From Alphaproteobacteria bacterium (GTDB lineage: Bacteria; Pseudomonadota; Alphaproteobacteria; CAAHEQ01; UBA3637): a stretch of 62,322 nt of DNA. The notes under the pieces are model-generated. The model saw only the letters and a list, made by a program, of their open reading frames with translations. It ran no database searches and was not told the DNA's origin. Positions 21,447-48,112 of this stretch are shown here, one piece after another. The translations under genes and the position numbers were made by a program. The stretch lies in NCBI GenBank assembly GCA_017467335.1, contig JAFTSJ010000040.1:1-62322 (forward strand), written 5' to 3'. Position 1 is the first letter of the stretch; every line of letters starts with the position of its first letter.

Positions 21447-22727
21447 ATGAAAAAATTAAAAAGCAAAGTTGTGTCTGAAATAGGCCGAGGTATGGTTGAA
21501 ATACTGGGTGTTTTGGGGGTTATCGGTGTTTTATCTATCGGGGGTATATATGGGTATCAATATGCTATGAATAAATATATAGCTAATAACATTATTCAAG
21601 ATGCGGCATTGGCAGATACACACCTATATTCTTTGCCGGATAAAGAACCGTTTCCATGGACAGAGATCAACAAAAATTTTCATACGGACAAAATAATTGA
21701 AATTCATCGGGATAATGAAGGCGATGGGTATGTTCGTGTCAAAGATATTGAAGAAGCGGTATGTAAACATATCTTAATGATGAATAATCCGCCTCGCATG
21801 ACACTTTTTAATACAGAAAGAGAACCTTTTACAAAATGTACTCAAGTAAATACAATTGTGTTTGCCTTTAACAGTATGCGGGCTCCCGGTGTTAATTGCG
21901 AAAGTGGTCTTGATTGTATCAAGATGAATATGTATTGTCAAAAAGATTATAAAGTTTGTCAAAATTGTCCGGAAGGGTATAAAGTAAATGCACAAGCTGA
22001 CGGATGTGATATTGTTTGTGATACAACAAGTCAAACAACCTGTCATTTAGACGGGACGTATTGGTGTTGTGATAAAAATTTATTGTGTGGTGATATCGTT
22101 GGTCTTTGTGAAGAATCAGACGGATATTGCGAATACAAAGTCAATCAACAACAAATCGATATTAAATCTGATTGTGCTTATATTTACAGTCAACAGGCAC
22201 AGACAATATATTCAGATTGTCAATACCGGTTTCAAAACACTGCCGGCGGGGCTACGTTTGAGCCGGTTAAAGATTGTGCCAAGGGACAATATTGTAATTT
22301 AACTTTTACGGATGATAAATGTCAGGACGGATTAAAAAATGAAAGTGTCGGTTTGATGTATGGGGTTTGTTCGGCACATGATCTGGCGTTAAGGACATGC
22401 CGACTGAAATCTGTTACGAATCCGATGAGTGTGAAAAAACGCTGTCCGAAAGGGCAATATTGTCGTTTGATCTATACAGATGAATTGTGTACAACGCCTA
22501 TTCCCGATAGTAACGGGGTACCGATGATGTACGGCGTTTGTTCTGATTTGTCAATGGCAACGAACAGTTGTCCGATTCAAAGTATTAGCAATGCCGTTAC
22601 ACCGATTAAAGAATGTCCACGGGCGAAATTTTGTCATTTAACGCATACGGATAAAGAATATACGACTCCTGTCGATAATTACGGAGCAGAAACGCTATTC
22701 GGTGTATGCAGAAAAAAGGATAAATAA
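21447..22727 (+). CDS. Pilin-like (class III signal peptide) protein with Cys-rich repeats
   Basis: EIG|RGMVEILGVLGVIGVLSIGGIYGY prepilin-type N-terminus with Glu at +5. About 30 Cys residues and three C-terminal ~56-aa C.KGQYC.L....C......MYGVC repeats. Confidence 0.85.
   Translation: MKKLKSKVVSEIGRGMVEILGVLGVIGVLSIGGIYGYQYAMNKYIANNIIQDAALADTHLYSLPDKEPFPWTEINKNFHTDKIIEIHRDNEGDGYVRVKDIEEAVCKHILMMNNPPRMTLFNTEREPFTKCTQVNTIVFAFNSMRAPGVNCESGLDCIKMNMYCQKDYKVCQNCPEGYKVNAQADGCDIVCDTTSQTTCHLDGTYWCCDKNLLCGDIVGLCEESDGYCEYKVNQQQIDIKSDCAYIYSQQAQTIYSDCQYRFQNTAGGATFEPVKDCAKGQYCNLTFTDDKCQDGLKNESVGLMYGVCSAHDLALRTCRLKSVTNPMSVKKRCPKGQYCRLIYTDELCTTPIPDSNGVPMMYGVCSDLSMATNSCPIQSISNAVTPIKECPRAKFCHLTHTDKEYTTPVDNYGAETLFGVCRKKDK
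22275..22724 (+). repeat. Three diverged 168-171 bp Cys-rich coding repeats
   Basis: The first Cys codon of each repeat is at 22275, 22443 and 22614. Confidence 0.85.
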
Positions 22728-22729
22728 AA

Positions 22730-22754
22730 GGGGGTGCCGGATATAGGCACCCCC
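22730..22754. terminator. Hairpin between convergent genes (probable bidirectional terminator)
   Basis: GGGGGTGCC-ggatata-GGCACCCCC flanked by A tracts. Confidence 0.75.
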
Positions 22755-22778
22755 CAAAAACGTGATTTTATTAAAATA

Positions 22779-23216
22779 TTATTGTGTATTTGTTTTTTTA
22801 GGGGCACAAATAGCGTGTTTACCGCTATCGGCTTTTCCGAATGAATTTAAGGTCCCACTGTTGGGATTGATGACCCGAGCAACTGTTGTACTGGTACCAA
22901 CTTCTGTCCATGCAAATACATTACCGGTATAAGCTCCGACAATATTCGGACATGCACCGGCACCTGTTCCACCCAGCCATCTTTTTTCTTCACTAATATA
23001 ACATAAATCAGTTAAATTTCCCAATTTCATTGATTGAGATTCGCACCAAGCAAATGCACTCCACCAATTCATACCGATTTTACTTAAGCAATATTTTGTA
23101 CCGTTTTTACCTTCAATAGGGTGACCGCCATCACAATCAGCCCAAGAAGATGTTGATATAATACAACCTAAAGTGATAACGATTGAAAAAAATAAAGATT
23201 TTGGTTTTATTAACAT
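22779..23216 (-). CDS. Small secreted Cys-containing protein, C-type-lectin/Lcl-like
   Basis: Signal peptide and CDGG...GKNG..YCLS...MNWWSAFAWC motif. Paralog of 61615-61980. Confidence 0.75.
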   Translation of the reverse strand: MLIKPKSLFFSIVITLGCIISTSSWADCDGGHPIEGKNGTKYCLSKIGMNWWSAFAWCESQSMKLGNLTDLCYISEEKRWLGGTGAGACPNIVGAYTGNVFAWTEVGTSTTVARVINPNSGTLNSFGKADSGKHAICAPKKTNTQ

Positions 23217-23475
23217 ATGTTTTTCCTTTATATCTATTGCGAATATATTATATTTATACTGTATTTAAAAAGAAATCAAATAAAAAAAACAAACAGATTG
23301 ATTTTAAAGTGTAGAAAATATTTTTTTGTTTTATTATATTGTTTATCATAAATATTTTATATAATACAGTCCAAAAAACAGCCGTTAATTTTTTGTAAAA
23401 TATCCGTAAAAAAACATTTAAGATTTTTTCAAATGGCGAAAATAAAAAGAGAACTAAATCAATTTGTTAACTTAA

Positions 23476-23505
23476 AAAAATGTGTCAAAAAAACGTCCCT
23501 TTTTT
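23476..23505. repeat. Left inverted repeat (IRL) of a putative invertible promoter
   Basis: AAAAATGTGTCAAAAAAACGTCCCTTTTTT, 29/30 identical to the reverse complement of 23617-23646. It has an internal dyad TGTC-A7-cgtccc-T7-GACA. Confidence 0.9.
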
Positions 23506-23509
23506 TGAC

Positions 23510-23538
23510 ATAATATTTTAGATTTATTTCATTGTCAA
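23510..23538 (-). promoter_or_regulatory. Sigma70 promoter inside the invertible segment, pointing left
   Basis: Minus strand reads TTGACA (23538-23533), N17, TATTAT (23515-23510). Confidence 0.8.
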
Positions 23539-23616
23539 CTAAAATTTGTAATTATTTGATTTTTCATGATTTTTTTGTTTTTGAAAAAGTGTAACCCTTA
23601 CCAAAAAAAAGCGTTC

Positions 23617-23646
23617 AAAAAAGGGACGTTTTTTTGACATATTTTT
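23617..23646. repeat. Right inverted repeat (IRR) of a putative invertible promoter
   Basis: AAAAAAGGGACGTTTTTTTGACATATTTTT, the reverse complement of IRL with one mismatch. The asymmetric core is inverted (GGGACG). Confidence 0.9.
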
Positions 23647-23691
23647 GAAAAATAACTGTCTGATTTTATTCATTTTTAAAATGGGGGTTCT

Positions 23692-25050
23692 ATGGAAATT
23701 TTAAACGCTTTTTTTAACGGATATTTTAAACAAAAAACAGCTGAAACAGGACGCAGTATGGTAGAAATGTTGGGCGTTTTGGCGGTTATTGGTGTTCTTT
23801 CAATCGGGGGTATTTACGGTTATACATTTGCGATGGATAAATATCTGGCAAATGAAACGTTAAATGAATTGAATACATTAGCTCACACACACGGTATGCA
23901 GATATATCAGATGATTGAAAAGGATGCTTTTCCATCTGACGATACCGTTTTAAGTGATGAAGATGCAAAAACCCGCTTAGGTTTTGATTACGAAGTTGCG
24001 GTATTCAGTGACCATTTTGAAATAGATGTTTTTGATGTGCCATATGCTATTTGTAATCAAATTCAACAAACGGCTTGGAATTTGCCATATGATGTTCAGG
24101 TTACAAATGCAACCACAGAAAAATGTGAAGCCGTTACGTATTTTTTTGATAACAATCTTTTCAGTCCTGATAATATGCAACAAGGCACGGGTGGTATCGG
24201 TAACAACAGTGATAATAATGATGGCCTTAATTGTGAAACAGGTTATTATGAAGAAGACGGTGAATGTTTTCCGGCACCGGTTATTTCTGCTCCCAGCCCT
24301 CAAGATTTTTCGACAGAATTAGTTATTGGTACCAAATATACCCATCAAATTCAAGCCAGTGTTACAGAAAATGCAGAACTTACTTATACGTTAAATAATG
24401 CACCGGCTACAATGCGTATTAGTAATACCGGTTTAATAACCTATAAACCAACATCAGATGATAATTCAAATGGCACGGTATCCGTTCAAATAACAGCTCC
24501 GCATGCACAGTCAGTCAGTGTTCAAGTGGGTTATGAAATAGCATTAGAAAGCCTGGGTGATTGTACTAATGTCACGATGTGTGATATTCAGCGAGATGGC
24601 ATGACTGTTAGTATTATTAAAGGTGGATTACAGGAATGTGGTCCGAATCAATTTTGTGCATATACAGGAACATTTTCTCCAACAACAGTTAATGACTGTG
24701 AAATCGGAAGTTTTAGAGGACCGGTTAGCGGAACATGTCAAACGGCTTCTCATGTAACGGAACTCGTTGGTTATCCCAAGGAATTTTTGGGAATATCTTT
24801 TATTTCTCAATGTTATGCTGGGGGTGGACGTTTGCCGTTTAAATCGGAATTGATAGCACAAGGGTTAAGTCCGGCTGATTATTGGTATGTGTCCGGTAAT
24901 ACATTTCAATTAGATGCAGAAATGGGTTCTTCAGATGTTAATCCGGTAGAATTTTTATATAATATTTATATGCCGTTTGACATGACCGCCGAACAAATGT
25001 TGAAGGCTTATAATACACGTAGTATTATTAAGTGTGTTTATGATGATTAA
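23692..25050 (+). CDS. Pilin-like (class III signal peptide) adhesin with Ig/cadherin-like domain and Cys-rich C-terminus
   Basis: ETG|RSMVEMLGVLAVIGVLSIGG N-terminus, an Ig-like LTYTLNNAPATMRISNTGLITYKP segment and a Cys-rich C-terminal region. RBS GGGGG. Confidence 0.85.
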   Translation: MEILNAFFNGYFKQKTAETGRSMVEMLGVLAVIGVLSIGGIYGYTFAMDKYLANETLNELNTLAHTHGMQIYQMIEKDAFPSDDTVLSDEDAKTRLGFDYEVAVFSDHFEIDVFDVPYAICNQIQQTAWNLPYDVQVTNATTEKCEAVTYFFDNNLFSPDNMQQGTGGIGNNSDNNDGLNCETGYYEEDGECFPAPVISAPSPQDFSTELVIGTKYTHQIQASVTENAELTYTLNNAPATMRISNTGLITYKPTSDDNSNGTVSVQITAPHAQSVSVQVGYEIALESLGDCTNVTMCDIQRDGMTVSIIKGGLQECGPNQFCAYTGTFSPTTVNDCEIGSFRGPVSGTCQTASHVTELVGYPKEFLGISFISQCYAGGGRLPFKSELIAQGLSPADYWYVSGNTFQLDAEMGSSDVNPVEFLYNIYMPFDMTAEQMLKAYNTRSIIKCVYDD

Positions 25051-25067
25051 ATGATACATGTTAATTC

Positions 25068-25096
25068 AAAACCACCGATGATGTATCGGTGGTTTT
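25068..25096. terminator. Bidirectional terminator between the pilin-like gene and rho
   Basis: AAAACCACCGAT-gatgt-ATCGGTGGTTTT perfect stem. Confidence 0.85.
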
Positions 25097-25119
25097 AACA
25101 TGCTTTATAACATAAAAAA

Positions 25120-26385
25120 TTATTGATTCATACTGTCAAAAAATTCATCATTTGTTTTGCTTTGACGTAATTTATCCATTAAAAATTCCATCGAATCCGT
25201 AACACCCATCGGCATTAAAATTCGCCGTAAAATCCACATTTTAGGCAGTTTTTTCTTATCAACCAATAATTCTTCATTACGTGTACCGGATTTAATGATG
25301 TCAATAGCCGGAAAGATACGTTTATCAGAAACTTTGCGATCTAAAATAATTTCAGAGTTACCCGTTCCTTTAAATTCTTCAAAAATAACTTCATCCATAC
25401 GGGATCCTGTTTCAATCAAGGCTGTTCCGAAAATTGTTAAAGAACCGCCTTCTTCTACATTACGAGCCGCCCCGAAAAAACGTTTCGGACGCTGTAAGGC
25501 GTTGGCATCAACACCCCCTGTTAAAACTTTTCCCGAACTGGGAATAACCGTATTATATGCCCGAGATAATCGTGTGATGGAATCTAACAAAATGATAACA
25601 TCTTTTTTATGTTCAACTAATCGTTTAGCTTTTTCAATAACCATTTCGGCAACTTGAACATGGCGTGAAGCCGGTTCGTCAAAGGTTGAACTGATAACTT
25701 CCCCTTTAATAGAACGAATCATATCCGTTACTTCTTCAGGTCGTTCATCAATTAACAACATAATTAAGTGAGCTTCCGGATGATTTTTTTCAATGGAATG
25801 AGCAATGTTTTTTAACATAACCGTTTTCCCCGTGCGAGGCGGTGCAACCACTAAACAGCGTTGACCTTTTCCTTGCGGACATACCAAGTCGATAATGCGA
25901 GGTGTTAAATCCTTCATGCTTTCCAAATTGCCATCCCCATATTCCATAACAATCGGTTTGTCCGGATAAAGTGGAGTTAAATCATCAAAATTGACACGGT
26001 AACGTAATTCTTCCGGATGACCAAAGTTAACCGTGTTAATTTTAGCTAACGAAAAATATCGTTCCCCGTTTTTGGGAGCATTTATTTCTCCTGAAATGGT
26101 GTCCCCTGTTCTTAATCCCCATTTCTTGATGTGGTGAGGAGCAACGTAAATATCATCTTGTCCGGCTAAATAATTAGCTTCGGGAGAACGTAAAAAACCG
26201 AACCCGTCCTGCATAACTTCTAAAACACCATCCCCAAACAAAGTTGTTTCGGATTCAGACAGTTTTTTTAAAATAGCGTACATTAAATCTTGTGTGCGAA
26301 GGGATGTGGCATTTTCAACACCCAAATCCTCGGCGTAAACCAGCAACTCTGCCGGTGTTTTCTTTTTTAAATCTTGTAATTGCAT
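25120..26385 (-). CDS. rho: Transcription termination factor Rho
   Basis: [31 protein letters not shown] and [12 protein letters not shown] motifs. Confidence 0.99.
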
Positions 26386-26590
26386 GTTATATCCTTAAAG
26401 TATGCAGAATTTGCACAATGCGTTACCAAATAATTCAAATTAAAACGCATGTGTCGGCAGGACGCCTACATGGTATATACTTTTTTTTTCGATTTTTGTC
26501 AATTGATTTTTCGTTTGGTTTATAAAAAAGAACTGGACTTCACCGTGAAATTGTGCCACATTAAAAAAGCACTGACGAAATGGAAATGTT

Positions 26591-27751
26591 ATGGATATTC
26601 AAGAATACCAAAATAAACGTATTTTTAAATCTTACAATATCCCCGTGTTAAAGGGGCGGGTTGCTTATACACCGGATGAAGCTGTTGAAATTGCCAATCA
26701 AATTGGTGGGAAAAGTTGGCAGTTGAAAGTTCAGATAAATAATGCCAGTCATCTTGACGGATTTTTTCAAGATGGTGTATTAAAACAGAAAAAAGGCATT
26801 CAGACGGCAAAATCACTTGATGAAGTGCGACAAATGGCAGACAATATGTTAGGACATGTTTTTGTCAGACCACAGGCTCATTGTCAAGAACAAGTTGTTC
26901 ATCGGATTTATGTCGAAGAAACAGCCAAAATCCATCGGTCTTTCGGTGTTTCCGTTCGATTGGATTTAATGCGTCAAACGTATGTATTTACGGTATCTTG
27001 TGCCGATAAAGTTCAAGAATTTGAAATTGCTCATATGCGTCCGACTTTATTGTTTTGGTATCGGGTTGTTCATGCTTTTAGGGTTAAAGGATTGGCTCAA
27101 ACAACGTTGGTTGCCATATTAAGACAAATGTATAAATTATTTCTGATATATGATGCTTTAGGGGTAGAAATCAATCCTTTAATTTTAACACCCAAAAACA
27201 AATGGGTTGTAGGGGAATGTCGCATTATTTTTGATAATGAAGCCATTGAACGTTACCCTGATATTATGGCTTTAAAGGAAACACCTGTCGGACAGGAACG
27301 GGAAGCTACAGCAGAAAAATATCATTTTAAATATACACCATTGAATGGCAATATTGCCTGTTTGGTCAATGGATCGGGTTTGGGAGCCGCAACGATTGAG
27401 TTATTGGAAATGCACCATGGCCGAGCAGCTTGCTTATTAGATGTTGGCACCGAACCAACAGGTGATTCTGTTTCCCGTGCATTCAAGTTGGCTTTGTCAG
27501 AGCCGAATGTCGAAGGTATTTTTATCAATATTTTCGGGGGATTAACCCGTTGTGATACAATTGCACAAGGGTTAATCGATGCGTCCAAAGAAATATCCGT
27601 TGGTATTCCTCTTGTTGTACGTATGGATGGTACAAATGCCAATGTCGGAGAACGATTAATTTTTGAAAGTCGTTTACCGTTTACCGTTATTAAACAACCC
27701 GAGCAGGCTGTTATGGCAATTGTTAATGCAGTAGAGGAATCGCAAGCATGA
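26591..27751 (+). CDS. sucC: Succinyl-CoA synthetase beta-like protein (divergent)
   Basis: MDIQEYQNK start and the EINPL, GNIACLVNGSGL, INIFGGLTRCD and VVRMDGTN motifs. The GGRGK loop is missing. Confidence 0.8.
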   Translation: MDIQEYQNKRIFKSYNIPVLKGRVAYTPDEAVEIANQIGGKSWQLKVQINNASHLDGFFQDGVLKQKKGIQTAKSLDEVRQMADNMLGHVFVRPQAHCQEQVVHRIYVEETAKIHRSFGVSVRLDLMRQTYVFTVSCADKVQEFEIAHMRPTLLFWYRVVHAFRVKGLAQTTLVAILRQMYKLFLIYDALGVEINPLILTPKNKWVVGECRIIFDNEAIERYPDIMALKETPVGQEREATAEKYHFKYTPLNGNIACLVNGSGLGAATIELLEMHHGRAACLLDVGTEPTGDSVSRAFKLALSEPNVEGIFINIFGGLTRCDTIAQGLIDASKEISVGIPLVVRMDGTNANVGERLIFESRLPFTVIKQPEQAVMAIVNAVEESQA

Positions 27752-28617
27752 TAAAATTTCCCGATCAAAAAACGCCGATTTTATGTCAAGGAATTACCGG
27801 TACCAGTGGGGCGGCTCATACAGAACGGGCTATTGCTTATGGCAGTCATGTTGTTGCCGGTATTTCTCGTGAGAAAAATTTAACGACTTTTTTGGATTTA
27901 CCTGTCTTTGCGACTGTTAAAGATGCCGTTCAATACACAAAACCGGATATTAGTGTTGTTTTTTCCAATCCATCCCGTGTTTATGCTGATACGGAAGAAG
28001 CTATTAAAGCTCGGATTCCCATGATTATTTGTACAACGACCCATGTTCCGTATCATGATATTATGAAGATGAAAGTGTTGGCACAAAAATATAAAGTTTG
28101 TTTAATCGGACCGGCTTCTCCGGGGATTGTCGTACCGGATGAGGTGTTAGTTGGAAATATGCCGGCTCATTTATTCCCTAAAGGGCATGTTGGTATTATT
28201 TCTCGTTCCAGTTCTTTATGTTATGAATTTGTCCAACAGTTACGAGATGAAAATTTAGGCGTATCAACATGTGTCGGTATCGGATCGGGGGCGATTTTGT
28301 GTACGTCTTTTGTCCCGATTATGAAAGCGATGTTAAATGACGATAAAACAAAATCGATTTTGATTATCGGAAAAATTAACAGTGAGTTTGAAGTAGAATT
28401 AGCAACATTTGTAAAGAAACAAAAAATAAAAAAACCGATTTTTATTTATTTGGCAGGAAAGCCGGATAAACGGATTAAACAATCTGTTTTAGGGGCAAGT
28501 ACACAAACATCAACCGAAATTGCCGACTACAAAAAACGCATTTGTGCCGAAGCCGGTATGATTGTCCTTGACCGATTCGATACAGTCGGGAAATGTGTTA
28601 AAGAACGATTAGGTTAG
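27748..28617 (+). CDS. sucD: Succinyl-CoA synthetase alpha-like protein (lacks the catalytic GHAGA His motif)
   Basis: QGITGTSG, IGPASPGI, GIISRS and STCVGIG motifs. Translationally coupled to sucC. Confidence 0.8.
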   Translation: MIKFPDQKTPILCQGITGTSGAAHTERAIAYGSHVVAGISREKNLTTFLDLPVFATVKDAVQYTKPDISVVFSNPSRVYADTEEAIKARIPMIICTTTHVPYHDIMKMKVLAQKYKVCLIGPASPGIVVPDEVLVGNMPAHLFPKGHVGIISRSSSLCYEFVQQLRDENLGVSTCVGIGSGAILCTSFVPIMKAMLNDDKTKSILIIGKINSEFEVELATFVKKQKIKKPIFIYLAGKPDKRIKQSVLGASTQTSTEIADYKKRICAEAGMIVLDRFDTVGKCVKERLG

Positions 28618-29297
28618 AACGAGCGGGGCAATCGCATTTTGTAATAATCGCTTCCGCTGATATCAACCCATACGATACGATAACCTTCGTCTTCATGAAC
28701 TTTAATTAAATTGCCGTTTGATAAATGAATAACAAACATTTCAATTTGATCTTCGTGTGCATGGGCGACAATATCCGTTACCGTTGCTCCGATAGCATGA
28801 CGACCATACAGACAAGAAACGTCATAAGGGGTACGACCCCAAAACAATTCTTTGATTTTTTTCGTACTTATATCAATAACTTCATCATATTCAACCGTGT
28901 TAAAATGCAACTGAAAACTCCACGCCTTGCCGAAATCAAATTCTAATTGATGTTCGCCTATTTCAAAAATAACAGGAAAAGTTGCCCATGGAATAAAATT
29001 CATAATACGGTGGTCTTGTGTTGACAAAGCATTACATTCTTCTTCATAAAAACGGATAAGACGGTTGCGTTGTTCATCTTCAACACAAGATGTTAAAAAG
29101 CCTCCGTTTAATATACGATGAAGGGGTTGACCGATTAACAACGGTTTTGCTTTTTTTAAAAATTCTTCAGCTTCTTTTTTGGGGTTTTCCATTTCTTCAA
29201 ACGGTGGTGTTTCAAAACTTACTCTGGGTTTTTTAGGTAAATCTATTTCCTCGTCAAAAAACTTTTTCCGCCGTTTTAATGATTTTCTTTCTGTCAT
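28614..29297 (-). CDS. Hypothetical protein
   Basis: 227-aa ORF with a GGGGA RBS and no recognised motif. Confidence 0.65.
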   Translation of the reverse strand: MTERKSLKRRKKFFDEEIDLPKKPRVSFETPPFEEMENPKKEAEEFLKKAKPLLIGQPLHRILNGGFLTSCVEDEQRNRLIRFYEEECNALSTQDHRIMNFIPWATFPVIFEIGEHQLEFDFGKAWSFQLHFNTVEYDEVIDISTKKIKELFWGRTPYDVSCLYGRHAIGATVTDIVAHAHEDQIEMFVIHLSNGNLIKVHEDEGYRIVWVDISGSDYYKMRLPRSF

Positions 29298-29306
29298 GTT
29301 GTCCCC

Positions 29307-30350
29307 TTATTGTTTAATTTCTTGTTCTAAAATAAATGATTGCAATCGGTTTTTATGTTTTTCCCAAAAATCATCGTTCGGCTGATTTTGAATAAAAGCA
29401 AGTAATTCTTTTAATATTGGTATAAATTTTTGTTGATTAGGCCATTTGCTGAATACACCGCTGAAATGCCAATCAAAATAAAAACGTGCTAATTCTTCTG
29501 ACCCACCGATTTTTTTTATTTCCTGATAAGAAATACGTGGAAGGCGAACGGTTGAATCATAATATCGGGGTCGATTATGGGTAATAGATGCTCCATGCGA
29601 ACGTTTATAATACAAAACTTGTGGAATAATAATGCCTTTGGCACCGCTGGCCAGCGTGGTGGCAAAAAAAACTTCATCTTCAAATACAAGATGGGGAATA
29701 AATTGAATTTGTTTATCTTGTAAATATTTTAACCTATAAATTTGTTTTGAAGATGTTGCCGGATAATACGGTAAAACGTAATGTGGAATTTGATTCCCTT
29801 GAAAAGGTGTGATTTGATGTTGCATCAATTCTCGGGGCAACAAACTATAATAACCGACTTTTTCTTCAGACGGTATGCCAATGTGATTGACCGGTTTAAT
29901 ATAAAAGGAAACAATATCCGGTTCAATTTGTGTTGCGTTTTTGCTTCTTAAAATAGCAGTTTTCATTTTTTCTATTGCCGAAACATCAATAAAATCATCT
30001 GCATCAACAAACCAAACGTATTTTCCTTTGGCAATTTTCATTGCGTTGTTGCGTGCAATGGAAAGACCTTGATTTTTTTGGTCAATAACCGTTATTTTAG
30101 AGTTGTTTTTTGCATATTTTTGAATAACATACAGCGAATTATCCGTTGAGCCGTCATTGACGATAATCACTTCAAAATCTTGCAGAGAAGATTTTAAAAC
30201 CGATTCAATAGTGGTTGATATATAGGATTCATAATTATATACGGATATGATAACGCTGATAAAGGGTTGATATAAAATACGAACGGCACTCCAAAAGGTT
30301 AAGGCAGTTATTACACAATAAATCAATATAAAAACAAGTGCTTTTTTCAT
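29307..30350 (-). CDS. Glycosyltransferase family 2 with N-terminal TM
   Basis: ISVIISVYN, IIVNDGSTD, NQGLSIARN, FVDADD and FED motifs. Confidence 0.92.
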   Translation of the reverse strand: MKKALVFILIYCVITALTFWSAVRILYQPFISVIISVYNYESYISTTIESVLKSSLQDFEVIIVNDGSTDNSLYVIQKYAKNNSKITVIDQKNQGLSIARNNAMKIAKGKYVWFVDADDFIDVSAIEKMKTAILRSKNATQIEPDIVSFYIKPVNHIGIPSEEKVGYYSLLPRELMQHQITPFQGNQIPHYVLPYYPATSSKQIYRLKYLQDKQIQFIPHLVFEDEVFFATTLASGAKGIIIPQVLYYKRSHGASITHNRPRYYDSTVRLPRISYQEIKKIGGSEELARFYFDWHFSGVFSKWPNQQKFIPILKELLAFIQNQPNDDFWEKHKNRLQSFILEQEIKQ

Positions 30351-30459
30351 ATGGTTTTTATATGTAAAAATCGTATTCTTGTCAATGAATTTTTTTATCG
30401 AAAGAATGGGTTGTTTTTTTGTTATCTCATCTTACTTAACAATAAAATAGGAGATGTAT

Positions 30460-31203
30460 ATGAACCAATATTCTAATCAAGAAATAATTTGTCCTTTAAT
30501 CGGAGATAAAGCCCCTTCTTTTGTTGCTCAAACAACGCAAGGAGAAATTCATTTTCCGGAAGATTTTAAAGGAAAATGGACTATTTTATTCAGTCATCCG
30601 ACAGATTTCACGCCCGTTTGCACAACCGAGTTTATTTATTTTTCTGAAATGATGCAGGATTTTGATAGTTTAAATACAAAACTCATCGGTTTATCTGTCG
30701 ATAGTTTAGCCAGTCATTTGGCATGGTTGCATGCTATTCAAAAAGATGTTGTGTTTCAAGGGATGAAGCATGTTAAAATTGAATTTCCGCTTGTTGCCGA
30801 TTTAACGGGACAAATTGCCCGTCAATACTGCATGTTGCATATGTCAGCCCATCAAACAAAAACAGTTCGAGCCGTCTTTTTTATTGATCCGCAAAGTATT
30901 ATTCGAACAATTTTATATTATCCGTCATCGTTAGGACGTAATTTTGATGAATTAAAACGTATCTTAATCGGGTTGCAATTGCATGATGAACTGGGTATTT
31001 CAACGCCTGCCAATTGGCAACCCGGTGATGAAGTTATCGAATCCAATCCGGAATGTATGGCGGACTTGGAAAAGCGTTTAAGCGAAAATACATCCGATAA
31101 CGGTGCTTGGTTTTTATCGTTAAAAGAATTGCCTATCGAAGAAATCGAAACGATTCTGCAAAAACAACGAAAATCGACACCGAAAAAGGGAAAACGTACT
31201 TGA
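30460..31203 (+). CDS. Peroxiredoxin (Prx6/1-Cys-like)
   Basis: LFSHPTDFTPVCTTEF, RAVFFIDP and TPANWQPG motifs. Start at 30460 follows an AGGAG RBS. Confidence 0.92.
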   Translation: MNQYSNQEIICPLIGDKAPSFVAQTTQGEIHFPEDFKGKWTILFSHPTDFTPVCTTEFIYFSEMMQDFDSLNTKLIGLSVDSLASHLAWLHAIQKDVVFQGMKHVKIEFPLVADLTGQIARQYCMLHMSAHQTKTVRAVFFIDPQSIIRTILYYPSSLGRNFDELKRILIGLQLHDELGISTPANWQPGDEVIESNPECMADLEKRLSENTSDNGAWFLSLKELPIEEIETILQKQRKSTPKKGKRT

Positions 31204-31208
31204 TTTTT

Positions 31209-31535
31209 TTAATGATACATGGTTTTGGGTAAACGAACACCTGTATTTTCCAGTTGCAAAATTTTCATGATTTTTTTAGGGGGAACAGATAAAATGCCGG
31301 TGTTTTCTTCAATTATCTTATCAAACAGATAATAAGCAACATCTTGATTGCCCAATAAATCATTAAGCGGTTTTTTCATATGTTCAAATACATATTCCTG
31401 CCATTCATCTTGTGGAATCGATTTTAACGGACAGTGTAAATCATGGGCTAAATTTTGACGTAATTCATATAACCGATTGATAAGAGCTTGTTCAATAAAA
31501 TCATATCGATTGAGTTTTTGTTGTGATGTAATCAT
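31209..31535 (-). CDS. Hypothetical protein
   Basis: 108-aa ORF with an AAGGAG RBS. Confidence 0.6.
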   Translation of the reverse strand: MITSQQKLNRYDFIEQALINRLYELRQNLAHDLHCPLKSIPQDEWQEYVFEHMKKPLNDLLGNQDVAYYLFDKIIEENTGILSVPPKKIMKILQLENTGVRLPKTMYH

Positions 31536-33605: not shown

Positions 33606-33616
33606 GGGGTTGAAGA

Positions 33617-39600: not shown

Positions 39601-40848
39601 GAACGTGCTTTGGCTATTGAACAAGCTGAAATCAATCGTTTAGCTAAAGACCGTGATGATGAAAAAGCCATCATTCAAGGTAGTTTCTACAATCGTATTC
39701 GTGGATTATTGGTCGGTCAAACTGTTGCTAAAGCCGAAGGTTTTGAAACAGGAACGATTTTAACACAAGAAGATGTTGATTCAATTGCCGGATATAATTT
39801 GCGTAAAGTCAGCGTTAAAGATGATGCGGTTATGACGCAGATTGAAGAATTGATTGCCACATTGATTCGGGCTGAAAAAGATTTACAAGAAAACTTTGAA
39901 AACCGTGTTGAAAAATTACAACGGGGCGATGAAATGATGGCCGGTGAATTGAAAAAGGTCAAAGTCTTTATTGCAACAAAACGTAAATTGCAACCGGGTG
40001 ATAAAATGTCCGGTCGTCACGGAAACAAAGGGGTTGTATCCCGTGTTTTACCGGTTGAAGACATGCCTTATACAGAAGATGGTACACCGATGGATATTGT
40101 TTTAAATCCGTTAGGGGTTCCTTCTCGTATGAATGTTGGTCAGATTTTGGAAACACACTTGGGCTATGCTTGTCGTGAATTAGGCCGACAAATCGGTGTT
40201 GTTGTTGACCAAGTTAAGGCACAACAATCAACAGTTGCTGATTTACGAGAAAAGTTAAAAGATGTTTATGGTGACCGAGAATATAGCCGTCATATCGCCG
40301 ATATGGATGATACGCAAGTTTTGGCAATGAGTGAAAATCTGAAAAAAGGTGTTCCTATTGCAACGCCGGTCTTTGACGGGGCACACCAAGACGATATTAA
40401 CGCTATGTTGAAAAAGGCGGGATTGAGTGAATCAGGTCAGGTAACTTTATACGATGGTTTGACAGGTGAACCGTTTGACAGAAAAGTTACTATCGGTTAT
40501 ATGTACATGTTAAAATTGCACCACTTGGTTGACGAAAAAATTCACGCTCGTTCAATTGGACCTTACAGTTTGGTTACACAACAACCACTCGGTGGTAAAG
40601 CCCAGTTCGGGGGTCAAAGATTTGGTGAAATGGAAGTTTGGGCATTGGAAGCATATGGAGCTGCCTACACCTTGCAAGAAATGTTGACCATCAAATCCGA
40701 TGACGTTTCTGGTCGTATTAAGGCTTATGAAACAATTATTCGGGGTGATAACAACTTTGAAGCAGGTATTCCGGAATCGTTCAACGTGTTGGTCAAAGAA
40801 ATCCGTTCTTTGGGTCTTGACATTGAATTGAACCAAAACGAAAAATAA
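36670..40848 (+). CDS. rpoB: RNA polymerase beta subunit
   Basis: [21 protein letters not shown] and [15 protein letters not shown] motifs. Alternative start at 36655. Confidence 0.99.
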
Positions 40849-40907
40849 TTTCATCGGGAAAGGATTTATTCCTTTCCCTCAACGCCATATAAAAATGAGG
40901 TTACATA

Positions 40908-43900
40908 ATGAATGAATTGATTACTACTTTTGGACAAGTTGCATCACCGCAAACGTTTGACGATATTCGCATTTCCATTGCTTCACCGGAACGGATTCGT
41001 GAATGGTCTTTTGGGGAAGTTACTCGTCCGGAAACAATTAACTATCGTACGTTTAAACCGGAAAAAGACGGGTTGTTCTGTGCTAAAATTTTTGGTCCGG
41101 TCAAAGATTACGAATGTTTGTGCGGTAAGTATAAACGTATGAAATATCGTGGGATTACTTGCGAAAAGTGTGGTGTTGAAGTCACATTGTCAAAAGTTCG
41201 CCGTGAACGGATGGGACATATTGAATTGGCTTGTCCCGTTACGCATATTTGGTTTTTGAAATCATTACCCAGTCGCATCGGTACATTGCTTGATATGATG
41301 TTAAAAAGTTTGGAAGCCGTTTTATATTTTGAAAAATATATTGTTATTGAGCCGGGTTTGACAAATTTAAAACAACATGAATTGTTGTCGGAAGAACAAT
41401 ATCAAACGGCTTTGGAAGAATACGGCGAAGATGCTTTCCGAGTCGGTATTGGGGCAGAAGCCATTAAAGAAATGCTTTCTCAAATTGATTTAGGGGCAGA
41501 AGCAGCTCGTTTACGTGCTGATTTAATCAGTACAACATCTGATATGAAACGCAAAAAAATCGTTAAAAAATTAAAGTTAGTTGAAGCGTTTTTAGAATCA
41601 GGTTCTCGTCCGGAATGGATGGTGTTAGATGTATTGCCGGTTATTCCGCCTGAATTACGTCCGCTTGTTCCGTTAGATGGCGGTCGTTTTGCCACATCTG
41701 ATTTGAATGATTTATACCGCCGTGTTATTAACCGTAATAATCGTTTAAAACGGTTGTTGGAATTGCGGGCTCCGGAAATTATCATTCGTAATGAAAAACG
41801 TATGTTACAAGAAGCGGTTGATGCTTTGTTTGATAACGGTCGCCGTGGTCGGGCTGTTGCCGGTACAAATAAACGTCCGTTAAAATCCTTGGCTGATATG
41901 CTTAAAGGTAAACAAGGTCGTTTCCGTCAAAACTTGCTTGGTAAACGTGTTGACTATTCCGGTCGTTCCGTTATTACGGTTGGTCCTGAATTGATGTTAC
42001 ATCAATGCGGTTTGCCGAAACGGATGGCTTTGGAATTATTTAAACCGTTTATTTATTCTAAATTAGAACAACGTGGTTTGGCAACAACGATTAAAGCTGC
42101 TAAAAAAATGGTTGAAAAGGAAAGACCGGAAGTTTGGGATATTTTATCCGAAGTTATCCGTGAACATCCTGTTTTGTTAAACCGTGCGCCGACATTGCAC
42201 CGTTTGGGGATTCAAGCGTTTGAACCGGTTTTGATTGAAGGTAAGGCTATTCAATTACATCCGTTGGTTTGTACAGCATTTAACGCTGACTTTGACGGTG
42301 ACCAGATGGCTGTCCACGTTCCGTTGTCAACGGAAGCTCAATTAGAAGCTCGTGTTTTAATGATGTCAACCAATAATATTTTATCTCCGGCCAGCGGTAA
42401 ACCGATTATTGTGCCGACACAAGATATTATTTTGGGTTTGTACTATTTGTCCATGGAACGTGATGGGGAACCGGGTGAAGGTATGGTATTTGCCGGTCCG
42501 CAAGAAATTGAACATGCTTTATTTGAAAAAGTTGTTACATTGCATTCGAAAATTAAAGTTCGTTTGACAATTATGGATGATGACGGTCAAAAACGGACTA
42601 AGTTGGTTTCAACAACACCGGGACGTGTGACATTGGCCTCTATTTTGCCGGACAACAGCAAAATTCCGTTTAGTTTGATGAACCGTTTAATCCGGAAAAA
42701 AGAAGTTTCGGAAATTATTGATGCCGTTTATCGTTTCTGCGGTCAAAAAGAAACATGTATTTTTGCAGACAGAGTAATGGGATTAGGTTATCGTCAAGCT
42801 GCGTTAGCCGGTATTTCATTTGGTAAAGATGACATGATTATTCCGGAAGCTAAAAAAACATTATTGGCTGAAACAAAAGCCAAGACGGCTGAATACGAAC
42901 GCCAATATCAAGATGGTTTGATTACTCGATTGGAAAAATACAATAAAGTTGTTGACGCTTGGGCTAAATGTACGGATGATATTTCCGATGCCATGATGAA
43001 AGAAATTTCCAAAGCCGAAGTTGGTAAACCGATTAACTCTGTTTACATGATGGCACATTCAGGGGCTCGTGGTTCTGCAACACAGATGCGTCAGTTAGCC
43101 GGTATGCGTGGCTTGATGGCTAAACCGAATGGCGAAATTATTGAAACACCGATTACGTCTAACTTTAAAGAAGGGTTGACGGTTATGGAATACTTTAACT
43201 CGACACACGGGGCTCGTAAAGGTTTGGCGGATACGGCTTTGAAAACGGCTAACTCCGGTTACTTGACACGGCGTTTGGTTGATGTTGCACAAGATGCCAT
43301 TATTACGATGGAAGATTGTGGTACGGACCAAGGTATTACCATTCAGCCGATTATTGAAGGAGGCGATGTTATTGCTTCTACCGGTGAACGTATTTTAGGT
43401 CGTACGGTTGCAGAAGACATTATTGATCCGGAAACAAACGAAATTATTGTACCGAAAAACAAGCTGATTGACGAATATGACGTTGAAAAAATTGATGCTG
43501 TTGGCGTTGAATCCGTTAAAATTCGTTCGGTTTTAACATGTGAAGCAGAAAATGGTATTTGCTGTGCTTGTTATGGTCGTGATTTGGCTCGTGGAACACC
43601 GGTCAATTTAGGTGAAGTTGTCGGTATTATTGCGGCACAATCCATTGGGGAACCGGGGACACAGTTGACCATGCGTACTTTCCACGTTGGGGGTACGGCC
43701 CAAAAAGGGGCAGAACAATCCAGTATTGACGTTGGATTCGATGCCAAAGTTAAATTGGTCGGCTGTAATGTTATTGCCGATTCCAAAGGAGATAACATCG
43801 TCTTATCCCGTAACTGTGAAGTATCCTTGTTGGATGCCAATAACCGTGAAAAAGCCCGTCATAAGGTACCATATGGGGCTAAATTGATGGTTCAAGATGG

Positions 43901-45035
43901 CGATAAGGTTACAAAAGGGGCTCGTATTGCCGAATGGGATCCTTATACAATGCCGATTATCGTTGATAAAAACGGTAAAGTTAAGTATGAAGATTTGGTT
44001 GAAGGCGAAACAGTTCGAGAAATGGTTGATGAAGCAACCGGTTTAACATCAAAAGTGATTACACGTCCGGTATCATCCAAAGTTGAACGCCGTCCGCATT
44101 TAGCCTTATTAGATGGTAAAGGTAAAATCTTTAAGTTTGGTAACGGTATGGAAGCTCGCTACTACTTGCCGGTTGACGCTGTTGTTGCCGTTGAAAACGG
44201 TCAAGATGTTCAAATTGGGGATGTATTGGCTCGTTTACCACGTGAAAGTTCTAAAACACGGGATATTACCGGTGGGTTGCCTCGTGTTGCTGAATTGTTT
44301 GAAGCTCGTTGTCCGAAAGATCCGGCGATTATTTCCGAAATTGACGGACAAATTGAATATGGTGTTGACTTTAAAACAAAACGCCGGATTGTTGTTAAGT
44401 CTATGGACGGTGAAACATCTCGTGAATATTTAATCCCGAGAGGACGTACAGTTGCCGTTCACGAAGGCGATTATGTTCGTAAAGGGGATATGATTGTTGA
44501 AGGGGCTTTGGATCCGCATGATATTTTACGAGTAATGGGTGTTGAAGCACTGGCACACTATCTTGTAAAGGAAGTTCAAGCTGTGTATCGTTTGCAAGGT
44601 GTTAAAATCAATGATAAACACATTGAAGTTATTGTCCGTCAAATGATGCAGAAGTTAGAAGTAACGGACGCTGGTGATACAACGTTATTGGTTGGTGAAC
44701 AGGTTGATAAAGATACGGTTATTGCTGAAAATCTAAAAGCTTTGAAATCAGGCGGACGGGAAGCAACGGTTACACCTGTTCTCTTAGGTATCACAAAGGC
44801 CAGTTTGCAAACAACGTCCTTTATTTCAGCAGCATCCTTCCAAGAAACAACTCGTGTCTTAACGGAAGCAGCAACAGAAGGCAAACGGGACAAATTGGTT
44901 GGTTTGAAAGAAAACGTCATTGTCGGTCGTTTAATTCCGGCAGGTACGGGTGCTCAAATGCAACGGTTGCGTCAAATTGCGGCTAACCGTGATAAAGAAG
45001 TTTTGGAAGCCCAAAATAAAGAAACGGTTGCTTAA
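40908..45035 (+). CDS. rpoC: RNA polymerase beta-prime subunit
   Basis: NADFDGDQM catalytic motif, N-terminal zinc finger and SAASFQETT motif. Confidence 0.99.
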
Positions 45036-45055
45036 CATCTGTTTTAGTTAACAGG

Positions 45056-45110
45056 AAGCGAGATTTTGTTTTTTTCGTGTCATCACGGGGGATCAAAATC
45101 TCGCTTTTTT
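45056..45110 (+). terminator. Long hairpin terminator after rpoC
   Basis: AAGCGAGATTTTG...CAAAATCTCGCTT followed by a T tract. Confidence 0.8.
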
Positions 45111-45317
45111 CATATCATGCGTTATGAAGGTGATATCTTTTTTATTCTCATATAAAAACAATAAAACACTCTTTAAATATGGGTATCGTCTTAAAAAATG
45201 TTTGTCATAATGGTTTGTATGATATTTGCAGATTGCTATGATTGAGCAAAATACAATATAGAAAATGAAAGGAAATGGATAACAATTTGTTTTATAAAAA
45301 CACATTGTTAAAAATAA

Positions 45318-45346
45318 TTGACAAACTTCCTGAAAAAGTATAAAAT
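45318..45346 (+). promoter_or_regulatory. Sigma70 promoter of the 45387 gene
   Basis: TTGACA-N17-TAAAAT. Confidence 0.55.
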
Positions 45347-45386
45347 AAAAAAACATAGATTGTTAGGGTATTGAAAGGAGTTGTTA

Positions 45387-46079
45387 ATGACAGGCAAAAA
45401 AGAATTGAGGGTTCAAGATTTATTTGATATACACCCGCTGGGTAATAAAAATGGCAATATGTGGAGTATTACATTAAAAAATAAGGCATATTCAGCATTG
45501 TCGCAAGAACAAAAATCGGTTGTTCGCAGTCAATTATGTTCTGTTAAATTATATGCCGGTAACCAAGTTTATCAAGATGGGTCTAATGATGTAAAGGGAT
45601 TTGATATAGCTCGCCGCCGGACGGGTGGTATCAGATACATCGGAACAAAAGAATTGTGTGATGATTTATTGCAAAAAATGGCAGAATCTCTAACAGATAC
45701 AAAATCAAACCGTGATTTGGTTAGTGAATTGTTCGTATCACGCCCGATTATTGGTTTTGGCGGACCGGTTAAAACATATACACTGAATAACAAAGCATAT
45801 GAATTGTTTTCTGATATGGACAAACAAAAGATTCGGGAAAGTTTGTGGGACATGGGTTTACCAATGCACGCAGGCGGTCGGTCATTGCCGGAACAATTGA
45901 GTGAAAAAGATTTTGATAAAGCTCGTAAACGTTTGGGTGGTTTATGGTTTTCAGGGGAACAAGGTATGTTGGAAGAAGCCGTCCAAAATATTCGACAAGT
46001 CTTATCAGGGGACAAAGCACGGGTTTTGGATTCTGTTACATTAAACATTCAACGGACACTTGCTGCTAAAACAAAATAA
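45387..46079 (+). CDS. Hypothetical protein with a two-fold internal repeat
   Basis: AAGGAG RBS and its own terminator. TLKNKAY...FDIARRRTGG is repeated as TLNNKAY...FDKARKRLGG. Confidence 0.75.
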   Translation: MTGKKELRVQDLFDIHPLGNKNGNMWSITLKNKAYSALSQEQKSVVRSQLCSVKLYAGNQVYQDGSNDVKGFDIARRRTGGIRYIGTKELCDDLLQKMAESLTDTKSNRDLVSELFVSRPIIGFGGPVKTYTLNNKAYELFSDMDKQKIRESLWDMGLPMHAGGRSLPEQLSEKDFDKARKRLGGLWFSGEQGMLEEAVQNIRQVLSGDKARVLDSVTLNIQRTLAAKTK

Positions 46080-46101
46080 TGTCTTCTTTGTTTTTTTATC
46101 T

Positions 46102-46131
46102 AACGGCTTATCAATCAGATAAGCCGTTTTT
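46102..46131 (+). terminator. Intrinsic terminator
   Basis: AACGGCTTATC-aatca-GATAAGCCGTT-TTT. Confidence 0.85.
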
Positions 46132-46446
46132 ATAATCGTTTGATATTATCTGATAAGATGAAACAATCTTATTAGAACATAATATGTTTGTATCATTTTG
46201 GTAATTTTTTTCTCATTCGCAAACAGATGATAAAATAAGACAAAATCCACCAAACAATTGTTTCAATTCGCATAGCGTTTTTTTATGTTCTTAATATATG
46301 TTGTTGTTTGATTGATATATAGAACCATTTGCAGTCCGATGATAAAATCTATGGAATAAATAAGATGACTATCAATAGCAATTAAAAATGCTTTTAAGAT
46401 ATTGTTAAAATAGAATTGTATGTCATTTTATCCTTTTTATTTTATG

Positions 46447-47304
46447 CTAATTAAAAACGATATCTGCCAGTAACCCACCGCATATACCACATATTAACAA
46501 TAATAAAACGGTTTTAAATAATAATTTGATATCTGCTCCTGACTTATAAAAAACAAGTAATCCGACACCGGCATTACTGAATAATCCGGCCATCATGACA
46601 GATAAAGGAATAACCGATTCCACATATAACCGAGTAAGTGTAACCGGTACGGCACAATTGGGAATTAATCCCAAACAAGCAGATAATAAAATACCCCAAA
46701 ACGTGTTGTGTTTTGTTAAATCAGCAATCATTTGTTCTCCGGTTAATTCAAAAATACAATTCAAAATAAATGAAATTAAAAGAATAAATATCATAATTCG
46801 AACAGTATGAAAGATGGCTGATTTCAAAATACCGTGATGATGACACAGACATTTATCATGATGGCACAAGGTGTGTATTTTAAATGTTGGAGTTGTTTTA
46901 AAAAATTGGTCAATAATTAACCCGATACCAATGGCAAATATCATTTGAAATAATAAAATAGCACATATCATGCCACCATTGATATTGGCAACAATTAACA
47001 TCGGTAACATTTCATCCGCTGTTGCTAAATAAACCGAAATCAATGTACCATATGAAATCAATTTTGTAATATATAGATTGCTGACAGTGGCAGCCAAGCC
47101 ACAACCACTGACCGGTGTTAAGATGGCTCCATACAATGGGCCGTAAGGATTGACCCTACAAATAATTTTACGAATCCTTGATTGAGCATTATGTTCAATG
47201 TATTCAAGAATTAAATATGTTAAAAACAAATATGGAATCAATTTAATTGAATCCATAAAAGTATGTATCCCTAAATGAGATAATACAGCGAATGAAAATG
47301 ACAT
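46447..47304 (-). CDS. Putative metal (Mn/As) transporter membrane protein
   Basis: LIPYLFLTYLILEYIEH, His/Cys-rich HTLCHHDKCLCHHH loop, GLIPNCA and AGLFSNAGVGLLV motifs. Confidence 0.75.
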   Translation of the reverse strand: MSFSFAVLSHLGIHTFMDSIKLIPYLFLTYLILEYIEHNAQSRIRKIICRVNPYGPLYGAILTPVSGCGLAATVSNLYITKLISYGTLISVYLATADEMLPMLIVANINGGMICAILLFQMIFAIGIGLIIDQFFKTTPTFKIHTLCHHDKCLCHHHGILKSAIFHTVRIMIFILLISFILNCIFELTGEQMIADLTKHNTFWGILLSACLGLIPNCAVPVTLTRLYVESVIPLSVMMAGLFSNAGVGLLVFYKSGADIKLLFKTVLLLLICGICGGLLADIVFN

Positions 47305-47455
47305 TTTATTTTCCTTATTTTGGGCTGACAATACCACAAAATTTGTAAAAAATACAATATTTTTTATTTATTTGCGTAAAAAAAGCATCTTGTTTCTAAT
47401 TTTTTAAGAATTTTTATCATAAATATATATGATATAGCGATGAAAGGGTGTTTAA

Positions 47456-48112
47456 ATGATATACGGATATATACGAATCAGTACCGATAAACAACAAGTG
47501 GATAATCAATTTTATGAAATCAAGCAATACGCTGAAAAACATCAAATTATTATAGACAGATGGGTAGAAGAAACCATCAGTTCAAGACAAGATTTAAATC
47601 GGCGAAAATTGGGTCCTTTACTTCGTAATTTACGCAGAGGAGATGTATTGATTACGTGTGAATTATCTCGGTTAGGACGTAATTTATTACAGGTTATGAG
47701 CATATTACATCATTGTATGTGTCGGGAATGTCAGGTATGGACCATCAAAGAAAATTACAGATTGGGGGCTGATATTCAATCAAAGGTATTGGCTTTTGCA
47801 TTTGGATTATCGGCAGAAATTGAACGTAATTTAATTTCACAAAGAACAAAGGAAGCCTTGGCTCGATTAAAAGCAGAAGGACAAAAATTAGGACGGCCGA
47901 CCGGTCGTCAGAACAGAGAAACAAAATTAAATGCACAAGTTACATTGATTCAAAGAATGTTAAAAAGTCGTGTTACAAAAGCACAAATTGCACAAGCTTG
48001 TAATGTTAGTCCATCCACATTGTATCGTTTTCTGAATGCGAAACAATTTGGCGATATGATGGCTGAATATTTAGCAGAAACGGATGAAGCTTATCAGATG
48101 TTAGATGAATAA
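47456..48112 (+). CDS. Serine recombinase, Mpi-like (multiple-promoter invertase) family
   Basis: MIYGYIRISTDKQ (catalytic Ser), ELSRLGRNL, VWTIKENYRLGADIQSKVLAFAFGLSAEIERNLISQRTKEALAR and a C-terminal HTH (VSPSTLYRFL). No adjacent transposase or element ends were seen. Confidence 0.88.
   Translation: MIYGYIRISTDKQQVDNQFYEIKQYAEKHQIIIDRWVEETISSRQDLNRRKLGPLLRNLRRGDVLITCELSRLGRNLLQVMSILHHCMCRECQVWTIKENYRLGADIQSKVLAFAFGLSAEIERNLISQRTKEALARLKAEGQKLGRPTGRQNRETKLNAQVTLIQRMLKSRVTKAQIAQACNVSPSTLYRFLNAKQFGDMMAEYLAETDEAYQMLDE

Follow-up and report, generated by a model that had tools for sequence, protein, structure and literature searches.

The window analysed here is a whole contig of 62,322 nt (C27) from a 1.32-Mb genome in 46 contigs, 93% complete and labelled G000. 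It contains a short cassette in which a predicted promoter lies between inverted recombination sites in front of a pilin-like gene. The cassette belongs to a family of between 26 and about 40 members dispersed over the genome, and precise inversion of such elements occurs between natural assemblies. The window likely contains one member of a phase-variation regulon that spans the genome, as well as a candidate for its enzyme, and an Mpi-family enzyme most likely turns the switches. The host is an uncultured gut alphaproteobacterium with a small, reduced genome; the sequence turns up in gut metagenome runs, including one from a goat, and a related metagenome-assembled genome (MAG), 'Alphaproteobacteria bacterium', was sampled from sheep rectum.

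The promoter cassette and its copies

The switch in the window, with its flanks, occupies positions 23405-23691. Perfect 23-nt inverted arms, TGTCAAAAAAACGTCCCTTTTTT, lie at 23483-23505 on the plus strand and 23617-23639 on the minus strand, with 111 bp between them. The left recombination site (23483-23510) is a complete 28-bp dyad of 11-6-11 form, TGTCAAAAAAA-CGTCCC-TTTTTTTGACA, while the right site (23612-23639) carries the inverted core GGGACG, a perfect outer arm and a degenerate inner arm (T6GAAC). The two sites delimit the invertible interior (23511-23611), and the homologous interior at the C8 locus of the same genome is exactly inverted in other assemblies. Within this segment lies the region's best sigma-70-like match, a predicted promoter on the minus strand (TTGACA-N17-TATTAT, 23538 to 23510, 11/12 match) whose −10 hexamer abuts the site. 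It is directed away from the pilin-like gene that starts at 23692 and towards a 145-aa gene at 22779-23216, so the window's switch is OFF. A split promoter built into the site was considered as well and rejected, since the segment itself contains the two hexamers and no −10 follows the TTGACA of the outer arm.

The conserved sequence extends past the repeats on both sides. Upstream of the cassette is a U-flank of about 80 bp (23405-23482), conserved among 15 aligned loci, and on the gene side is a G-flank (23640-23691, plus strand), a conserved 52-nt putative leader with a GGGGG ribosome-binding site. About 25 paralogous genes follow the same G-flank, their ATG being at +53. The whole switch is contained in the fragment 23450-23691. 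The sequence-only reading of the window had described recombinase-type inverted repeats flanking a promoter before a pilin-like gene, and the perfect 23-nt arms, the internal 11/12 promoter and the gene at 23692 bear this out. In the outward direction the U-flank also shows a weak hairpin and, after it, a T-run (23405-23440, at the same place in other cassettes); the hairpin is 87.5% pairable and has one compensatory change, in the window's copy. RNAalifold left this hairpin unchosen and its pair counts did not exceed those of shuffles; possibly it could halt transcripts made in the OFF state.

A genome-wide count gives 63 perfect copies of the 23-mer and no copy of the reversed control pattern, which is far above chance; 67 site copies were found in all. 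They make up 24 complete cassettes of 156-158 bp (mostly 157 bp), together with half-cassettes at contig ends, at a density of roughly one switch per 33-50 kb. The whole-genome search for inverted-repeat pairs that the sequence-only reading proposed is strongly positive, and nearly all the cassettes that it recovers stand directly upstream of paralogous pilin-like genes. Homology again reaches into the U-flank on one side and the leader with its G-rich ribosome-binding site on the other, and the genes at +53 begin M[EK]ILN.F.NGYFKQK..ETGRSMVE[IM]LGVLA. Alignment of 15 cassettes shows both sites and both promoter hexamers to be invariant, while differences are seen in the spacer of the promoter, in the distal part of the interior and in the flanks. 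A cassette at C8 (G000:C8:318-474) precedes a different type of gene, which encodes a Cys-rich protein of 435 aa with a signal peptide.

Orientation was scored by which end of the interior meets which flank. This census gave 31-34 OFF-type junctions with the U-flank and 22-23 with the gene flank, and ON-type junctions at C39:6982-7138, C45:3276, C46:364/11215 and C8:318-474. Most cassettes are therefore OFF in the assembly consensus. The repeats also leave their mark on the assemblies: 32 of 92 contig ends lie at most 700 bp from a site, and the poor assembly of these genomes is explained by about one third of contig ends falling at cassettes. Logan contigs built at k=31 terminate at the 28-bp sites, and flank and interior are not phasable in them. 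Scans of Joint Genome Institute (JGI) metagenomes with site plus leader, and with the site alone, gave no match.

Two variations on the site were seen. The inner arm of the promoter-distal site is degenerate (T6GAAC) in nearly all cassettes, including that of the window at 23612-23639, and the C8 cassette, one caught flipped, has two perfect dyads; the degenerate arm may tune the rate or the bias of inversion. A second class of sites has the core CGTACC, with central TA in place of TC, and the promoter variant TTGACA-N17-TATCAT (C16:31241-31381 and C36:64854-64994, both at contig ends). This core predominates in the sister species G042, and the class may form a separate compatibility group. 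Beyond these sites, a search for a second class of switch found no other short-range perfect inverted repeat of at least 17 bp in the genome, except an inverted duplication of pilin genes on C5.

Inversion, exchange and the candidate recombinase

Direct evidence of inversion comes from the C8 locus. The 435-aa protein is encoded identically in assemblies ERZ28018951 and ERZ28019339, where the element is the exact reverse complement over 157 of 157 positions and the downstream flank is identical over 800 of 800. The second case is a pilin-like gene of 656 aa (C46:573-2543), whose partner on the far side of the site differs in each of three assemblies: it is a divergent pilin-like gene in G000, the U-flank that ends contig C41 in ERZ28019339, and the gene and interior of the C18 locus in ERZ28018951, where the promoter is now directed at the 656-aa gene (ON). 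Thus the family has the anatomy of an inverton, a short repeat-bounded segment with a predicted promoter inside and a gene start just outside, and its members at C8 and C46, though not the one in the window, are found in both orientations at the same locus with breakpoints in the repeats.

On contig C46 one cassette is bounded by gene flanks (G-G, 364-520) and another by U-flanks (U-U, 11080-11237), 10.5 kb apart, which is the reciprocal pattern expected of a large inversion between two loci. The identical 95-bp U-flanks at the contig end could alternatively be a fold-back of the assembly graph produced by mixed orientations. The C46 pattern points to recombination between different loci, resulting in large inversions and in the sharing of a promoter by divergent genes. 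A wider interpretation, which we regard as possible but hold with some reserve, is that the dispersed identical sites constitute a genome-wide recombination network, in which the invertase also recombines different loci, moves promoters and gene partners and flips multi-kb segments. Divergent gene pairs sharing one promoter would then act as a toggle, and compatibility groups would be set by the two central bases of the core (mostly TC in G000, with TA at two loci, and mostly TA in G042). Strict selectivity for inversion would shield a 1.3-Mb genome with about 70 sites from deletions. If such a network exists, a switch to another central dinucleotide could reconnect the entire regulon as species diverge.

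No recombinase gene in G000 adjoins a site, so whichever enzyme acts must act in trans. The window encodes a candidate for this role at 47456-48112 on the plus strand, a small serine recombinase of 218 aa that stands alone, with no site near it. It scores 300.9 bits over profile positions 1-197 of 203 of NF009949 ('master DNA invertase Mpi family serine-type recombinase'), whose curated equivalog cut-off is 272 bits, and it has an N-terminal catalytic Resolvase domain with the nucleophilic Ser (PF00239, E 1.9e-31) and a C-terminal HTH_7 (PF02796, E 3.5e-6). It aligns over its full length with the Gin invertase 4m6f, the best solved homolog (E 4e-13), with YIRISTDKQ against GYVRVSTNDQ and SRLGR against DRLGR. 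A stand-alone Mpi-like serine invertase, as read earlier from the sequence, is confirmed by these matches. Its gene overlaps a convergent gene for a PIF1-type helicase (48094-49452, minus strand) by 19 bp at the 3' ends (48094-48112), and GC content falls to 0.31 at 46-48 kb of the window.

Three more paralogs, all full-length, are encoded elsewhere in the genome: C28:636-1253 (275.4 bits on NF009949, above the cut-off), C18:55560-56300 (272.2 bits, 98% alike to the C28 copy) and C38:32357-33016 (265.3 bits, just under the cut-off). With four Mpi-family paralogs, the window's copy is one candidate and not a demonstrated enzyme. The further recombinases of the genome are a decayed fragment on C4, one large serine recombinase and, among tyrosine recombinases, only an XerC-like and an XerD-like protein. 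The sequence-only reading had proposed an Mpi-like global switching network acting on pilin-like adhesins. The genome-wide cassettes, the inversion between assemblies and the Mpi-family score uphold that proposal, while the particular enzyme that it named is reduced to one candidate among four.

The sites of related genomes suggest which kind of enzyme reads them. The Mpi-family profile search covered 80 genomes of the same bacterial family, 61 of which have such genes, and 14 control genomes, of which only Bacteroides thetaiotaomicron rises above the cut-off. Strict sites were counted by their A7-N6-T7 arms. G000 has 39 strict sites with the core CGTCCC and G042 has 44 with CGTACC. The cores CGATCC, GGATCC and CGATCG occur at 24 sites in G007 and 6 in G006, GGATCC and CGATCC at 16 sites in G014, and TGTTCC at 6 sites in G026. 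Relatives' sites follow the pattern A7-SG-NN-CS-T7: across species every core has G as its second base and C as its fifth, the outermost bases (1 and 6) are C, G or T, and the middle two range freely over TC, TA, AT and TT. A free central 2 bp between a fixed G2 and C5 would fit a dimer-bound site with a 2-bp staggered crossover, as the established mechanism of serine recombinases would have it.

Genome G014, of another genus and 97% complete, offers the closest approach to a link between enzyme and site. It has 163-bp cassettes of the same design, at least 5 of them complete among its 16 sites, with a pilin-like gene (MKKHIPTNESGRSMVEMLG...) seen beside 4 of 5 examined; the cassette on L102 is ON and those on L099 and L100 are OFF. 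Its only small serine recombinase is stand-alone and Mpi-like, located between genes for a glycosyltransferase and a UvrD-type helicase, and it also encodes one large serine recombinase and two Xer-like proteins. The exact 23-mer was also found in G076 (MAG RGIG6380, another genus), only on contigs of 1.6 and 2.2 kb (L027 and L028) in a bin with 7% contamination, and may belong to DNA from a relative of this organism that was binned wrongly.

These data present a model in which each cassette is laid out as U-flank, 28-bp site, interior of about 100 bp with a complete predicted sigma-70 promoter, inverted 28-bp site, 52-nt leader and pilin-like Cys-rich gene. A small Mpi-family serine recombinase encoded elsewhere would act in trans, binding each site as a dimer through the TGTC-A7 arms. 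The two sites would synapse, and a 2-bp staggered cut at the centre of the core (CG-TC-CC), rotation and rejoining would flip the promoter. In the ON state transcription would start in the A-tract of the site and run through the leader into the pilin-like gene, and in the OFF state it would run into the upstream flank. Expression of the downstream gene would thus depend on orientation.

Several findings weigh against this model, or against its assignment to one enzyme. The link between enzyme and sites is drawn by inference. Although all 7 cassette-rich genomes have an Mpi-family gene, so do 61 of the 80 genomes of the family (1-7 genes each), and the coincidence has a chance probability of about 15%, which is not significant. 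No paralog clade cleanly tracks the cassette-rich genomes, and the recognition helices are alike in all paralog types, so the four paralogs are indistinguishable by them. The window's own cassette is OFF in 4 of the 4 assemblies in which it was seen, and 5 of the 7 loci compared across assemblies are in the same state, the window locus and four others all being OFF. Finally, 11-bp inverted arms around a 6-bp asymmetric core resemble the core sites of dif/lox-type tyrosine recombinases.

We tentatively assign the switching, alone or shared with a paralog, to the window's copy, at somewhat short of an even chance. The tree, synteny and the alignment of recognition helices lean weakly towards it. 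The window's copy is the top scorer on the Mpi model and is syntenic within the genus: orthologs with the same flanking genes, for a PIF1-type helicase and an ArsP-type permease, occur in G042 (85% identity) and in G047 and G048 (74%). In the tree, the sole copy of G014 falls in a major clade that, among the G000 paralogs, holds only the window's gene, in a part of the tree that is unresolved. It is conceivable, at a slightly lower level of confidence, that an Mpi-family invertase flips the cassettes but that this is the C28/C18 or the C38 type, with the window's gene serving an unseen target. The C28/C18 type is also above the Mpi cut-off (275 bits) and present twice, its protein is matched at 100% identity in the cassette-rich congener G042, and G007 with its 24 sites has a member of that clade; G048, moreover, encodes an ortholog of the window's copy and lacks matching sites. 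Against this, G014 has cassettes without members of the C28 or C38 clades, and no second class of perfect inverted repeats (at least 17 bp) was found as the target of another paralog. The C28 and C18 genes themselves form a gene-sized duplicated segment of 636 bp (95% DNA identity) in unrelated housekeeping contexts, and this, with the complete identity to the G042 protein, suggests recent movement or transfer of the gene alone.

It is very improbable that the housekeeping tyrosine recombinases XerC and XerD turn the switches, even though both genes are present and the site has the 11-6-11 form described above. The 6-8-bp overlap of a tyrosine system is expected to drift as a whole, whereas here free variation is limited to the 2 bp at the centre of the core, and the fully palindromic core GGATCC of G014 removes the asymmetry on which such a system would rely. 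Recombination by Xer at dif is tied to FtsK and to cell division. The sequence-only reading had itself raised a different, for example tyrosine, invertase as the competing possibility; the genome search gave only XerC and XerD, and no extra tyrosine invertase was found in G000, G014 or G042. Neither a wholly variable overlap nor a dedicated enzyme, the marks of a tyrosine-recombinase core site, is present.

Equally doubtful is the proposal that the cassettes are relics or repeats like miniature inverted-repeat transposable elements (MITEs) that no longer switch, the differences being rare RecA events or errors of repeat assembly: they are short multi-copy elements with terminal inverted repeats at which assemblies break, and most of the compared loci share one state, but they are never in random context (always beside the same U-flank and, at all but one locus, the same leader and gene family), neither the unrelated insertion contexts nor the target-site duplications of MITEs were seen, the 23-bp arms are invariant in 63 copies next to variable bases, and breakpoints fall exactly at the sites, at junctions within k=141 contigs, where under 141 bp separate the locus-specific bases of the two sides, in a design that other genera keep with diverged sites and in both orientations.

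The pilin-like and lectin-like genes

The gene behind the window's cassette (23692-25050, plus strand) encodes a pilin-like surface protein of 452 aa, the target of the switch. Its leader, ...KQKTAETG/RSMVEMLGVLAVIGVLS, carries Gly at −1 and Glu at +5 ahead of a hydrophobic helix; the motif G/RSMVE, followed by LGVLAVIGVLS, resembles that of a class III signal peptide. The protein has a weak match to Big_9, and searches gave no match to a pilin model of Pfam (N_methyl) or NCBIfam and no sequence match in the PDB. Upstream of the switch region is a paralog of the switch-linked family, a pilin-like Cys-rich gene of 426 aa (21447-22727, plus strand; N-terminus ...GRGMVEILGVLGVIGVLSIGGIYGY), with no site in its 170-bp upstream region and no Pfam or NCBIfam match. 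Just upstream of these pilin-like genes (17948-21273) are encoded a ResIII/DEAD helicase-like protein of 924 aa and an ankyrin-repeat protein of 169 aa.

In total the genome has about 35 pilin-like N-termini, roughly 25 of them behind cassettes, as well as one prepilin peptidase (53 bits) and three T2SSE ATPases. The variants are presumably displayed on a type IV-pilus-like fibre, and with most cassettes OFF each cell probably displays few of the 25 to 35 or so variants. Two facing pilin-like genes on C5 (44378-45739) form the inverted duplication mentioned above, with perfect repeats of 71 nt and 50 nt in their 5' ends, a shared palindromic terminator-like element between them and no A7/T7 sites. 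These may be the structural pilin genes.

The second family consists of nine small secreted paralogs, among them the proteins of 145 aa (22779-23216) and 121 aa (61615-61980), both encoded on the minus strand of the window. The 121-aa protein has eight paralogs, of which the 145-aa protein is a divergent one with 31% identity. They have no Pfam match and are predicted to adopt a C-type-lectin-like fold. An AlphaFold2 (AF2) model of the 121-aa family has a predicted local distance difference test (pLDDT) value of 85, and its top Foldseek matches (the C-terminal domain of Bd2740, flavocetin, NKp80 and MBP-C) are all C-type-lectin-like domains (CTLDs), at E 1.8e-4 and with template-modelling (TM) scores of only 0.45-0.51.

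These genes are mostly second genes behind Cys-rich genes and not targets of the switches. In the window, the 3' end of a Cys-rich gene (62019-62321, minus strand) stops 38 bp before the 121-aa gene. The same conserved Cys-rich C-terminus lies 38 bp before lectin-like genes on C27, C31 and C43 and 760 bp upstream on C24, while on C26 the contig ends at the lectin-like gene. The 38-bp spacing on C27, C31 and C43 makes the lectin-like genes probable co-transcribed partners of the Cys-rich genes. The exception is the 145-aa gene, which lies 267 bp beyond the U-flank, on the side that the promoter now faces. The earlier description of paralogous pilin-like and lectin-like surface families therefore holds for both families as such, with the lectin-like genes for the most part outside the control of the cassettes. 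The lectin-like loci (61615-62321 in the window, and the ends of C31, C43, C24 and C26) are another repeat at which the assembly breaks.

Relation to known systems

Full-text literature searches returned work on Mpi and invertons in Bacteroidales, Clostridioides and Akkermansia and broad surveys, and none on this system in gut Alphaproteobacteria. The annotation pipeline PGAP already names such proteins 'Mpi family' in MAGs of Alphaproteobacteria, so what is new is the regulon and not the protein family. The design of a master invertase with many invertible promoters, so far worked out experimentally mainly in Bacteroidales, would thereby extend to an uncultured, reduced-genome lineage of Alphaproteobacteria in the animal gut, at a much higher density and with its output changed to a large set of Cys-rich, adhesin-like proteins that are pilin-anchored. 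Surface variation by this strategy would then employ a related enzyme family in a second phylum, for which independent origin and horizontal transfer are both possible. The regular natural set of sites, with the same arms and a species-specific central dinucleotide, is also well suited to the study of site selectivity by serine recombinases.

The invertases Hin, Gin, Cin and Pin with their hix and gix sites belong to the same enzyme class, and they share with this system dyad sites, A-tract half-sites and a central 2-bp crossover. The centre of gix is GA/TC, like the TC centre here. In those systems, however, the enzyme is encoded beside a single segment of about 1-4 kb and needs an enhancer and Fis, while here the segment is 157 bp, the sites number in the dozens, the enzyme is unlinked and no enhancer was identified. 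The RecV switches of Clostridioides difficile, such as the flagellar switch (PMC5386303), resemble it in having one recombinase that acts in trans on several short switches (about 150 bp) upstream of surface or motility genes. RecV differs in being a tyrosine recombinase with few targets and non-identical repeats, and some of its switches act after transcription initiation.

On the side of the products, modular type IV pilins (PilB and PilC of Streptococcus sanguinis; the type IVb minor pilins TcpB and CofB) likewise carry a large additional module behind a pilin-type leader and its hydrophobic helix, and here too a prepilin peptidase and T2SSE ATPases are encoded in the genome. The present family is distinguished by its size of about 35 genes, its Cys-rich repeats, its lack of a Pfam N_methyl match and its control by DNA inversion.

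The closest parallel is Mpi (Ssr2) of Bacteroides fragilis, which inverts 13 unlinked regions, 7 of them polysaccharide promoters (PMC4747536). In both systems an enzyme of NF009949 stands alone, unlinked to its targets, and many short promoter-bearing segments bounded by inverted repeats, mostly OFF, precede genes for surface structures in a gut commensal. Unlike in B. fragilis, the host belongs to the Alphaproteobacteria, the targets are pilin-like and Cys-rich rather than capsule operons, and 26 to about 40 switches are packed into 1.3 Mb as against 13 there. The B. fragilis genome is much larger than 1.3 Mb. Near-identical cassettes, 28-bp sites with A7/T7 arms, four paralogous invertases and exchange between loci further set this system apart. 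The Mpi consensus is reportedly like ARACGTWCGT, a form attributed to Coyne et al. in 2003, and AAACGTCCCT and AAACGTACCT here would be similar to it, which is a lead only. The mechanism is of a known kind. What is new is the host lineage, the family of targets, how densely the switches are packed, how uniform their sites are and the exchange between loci.

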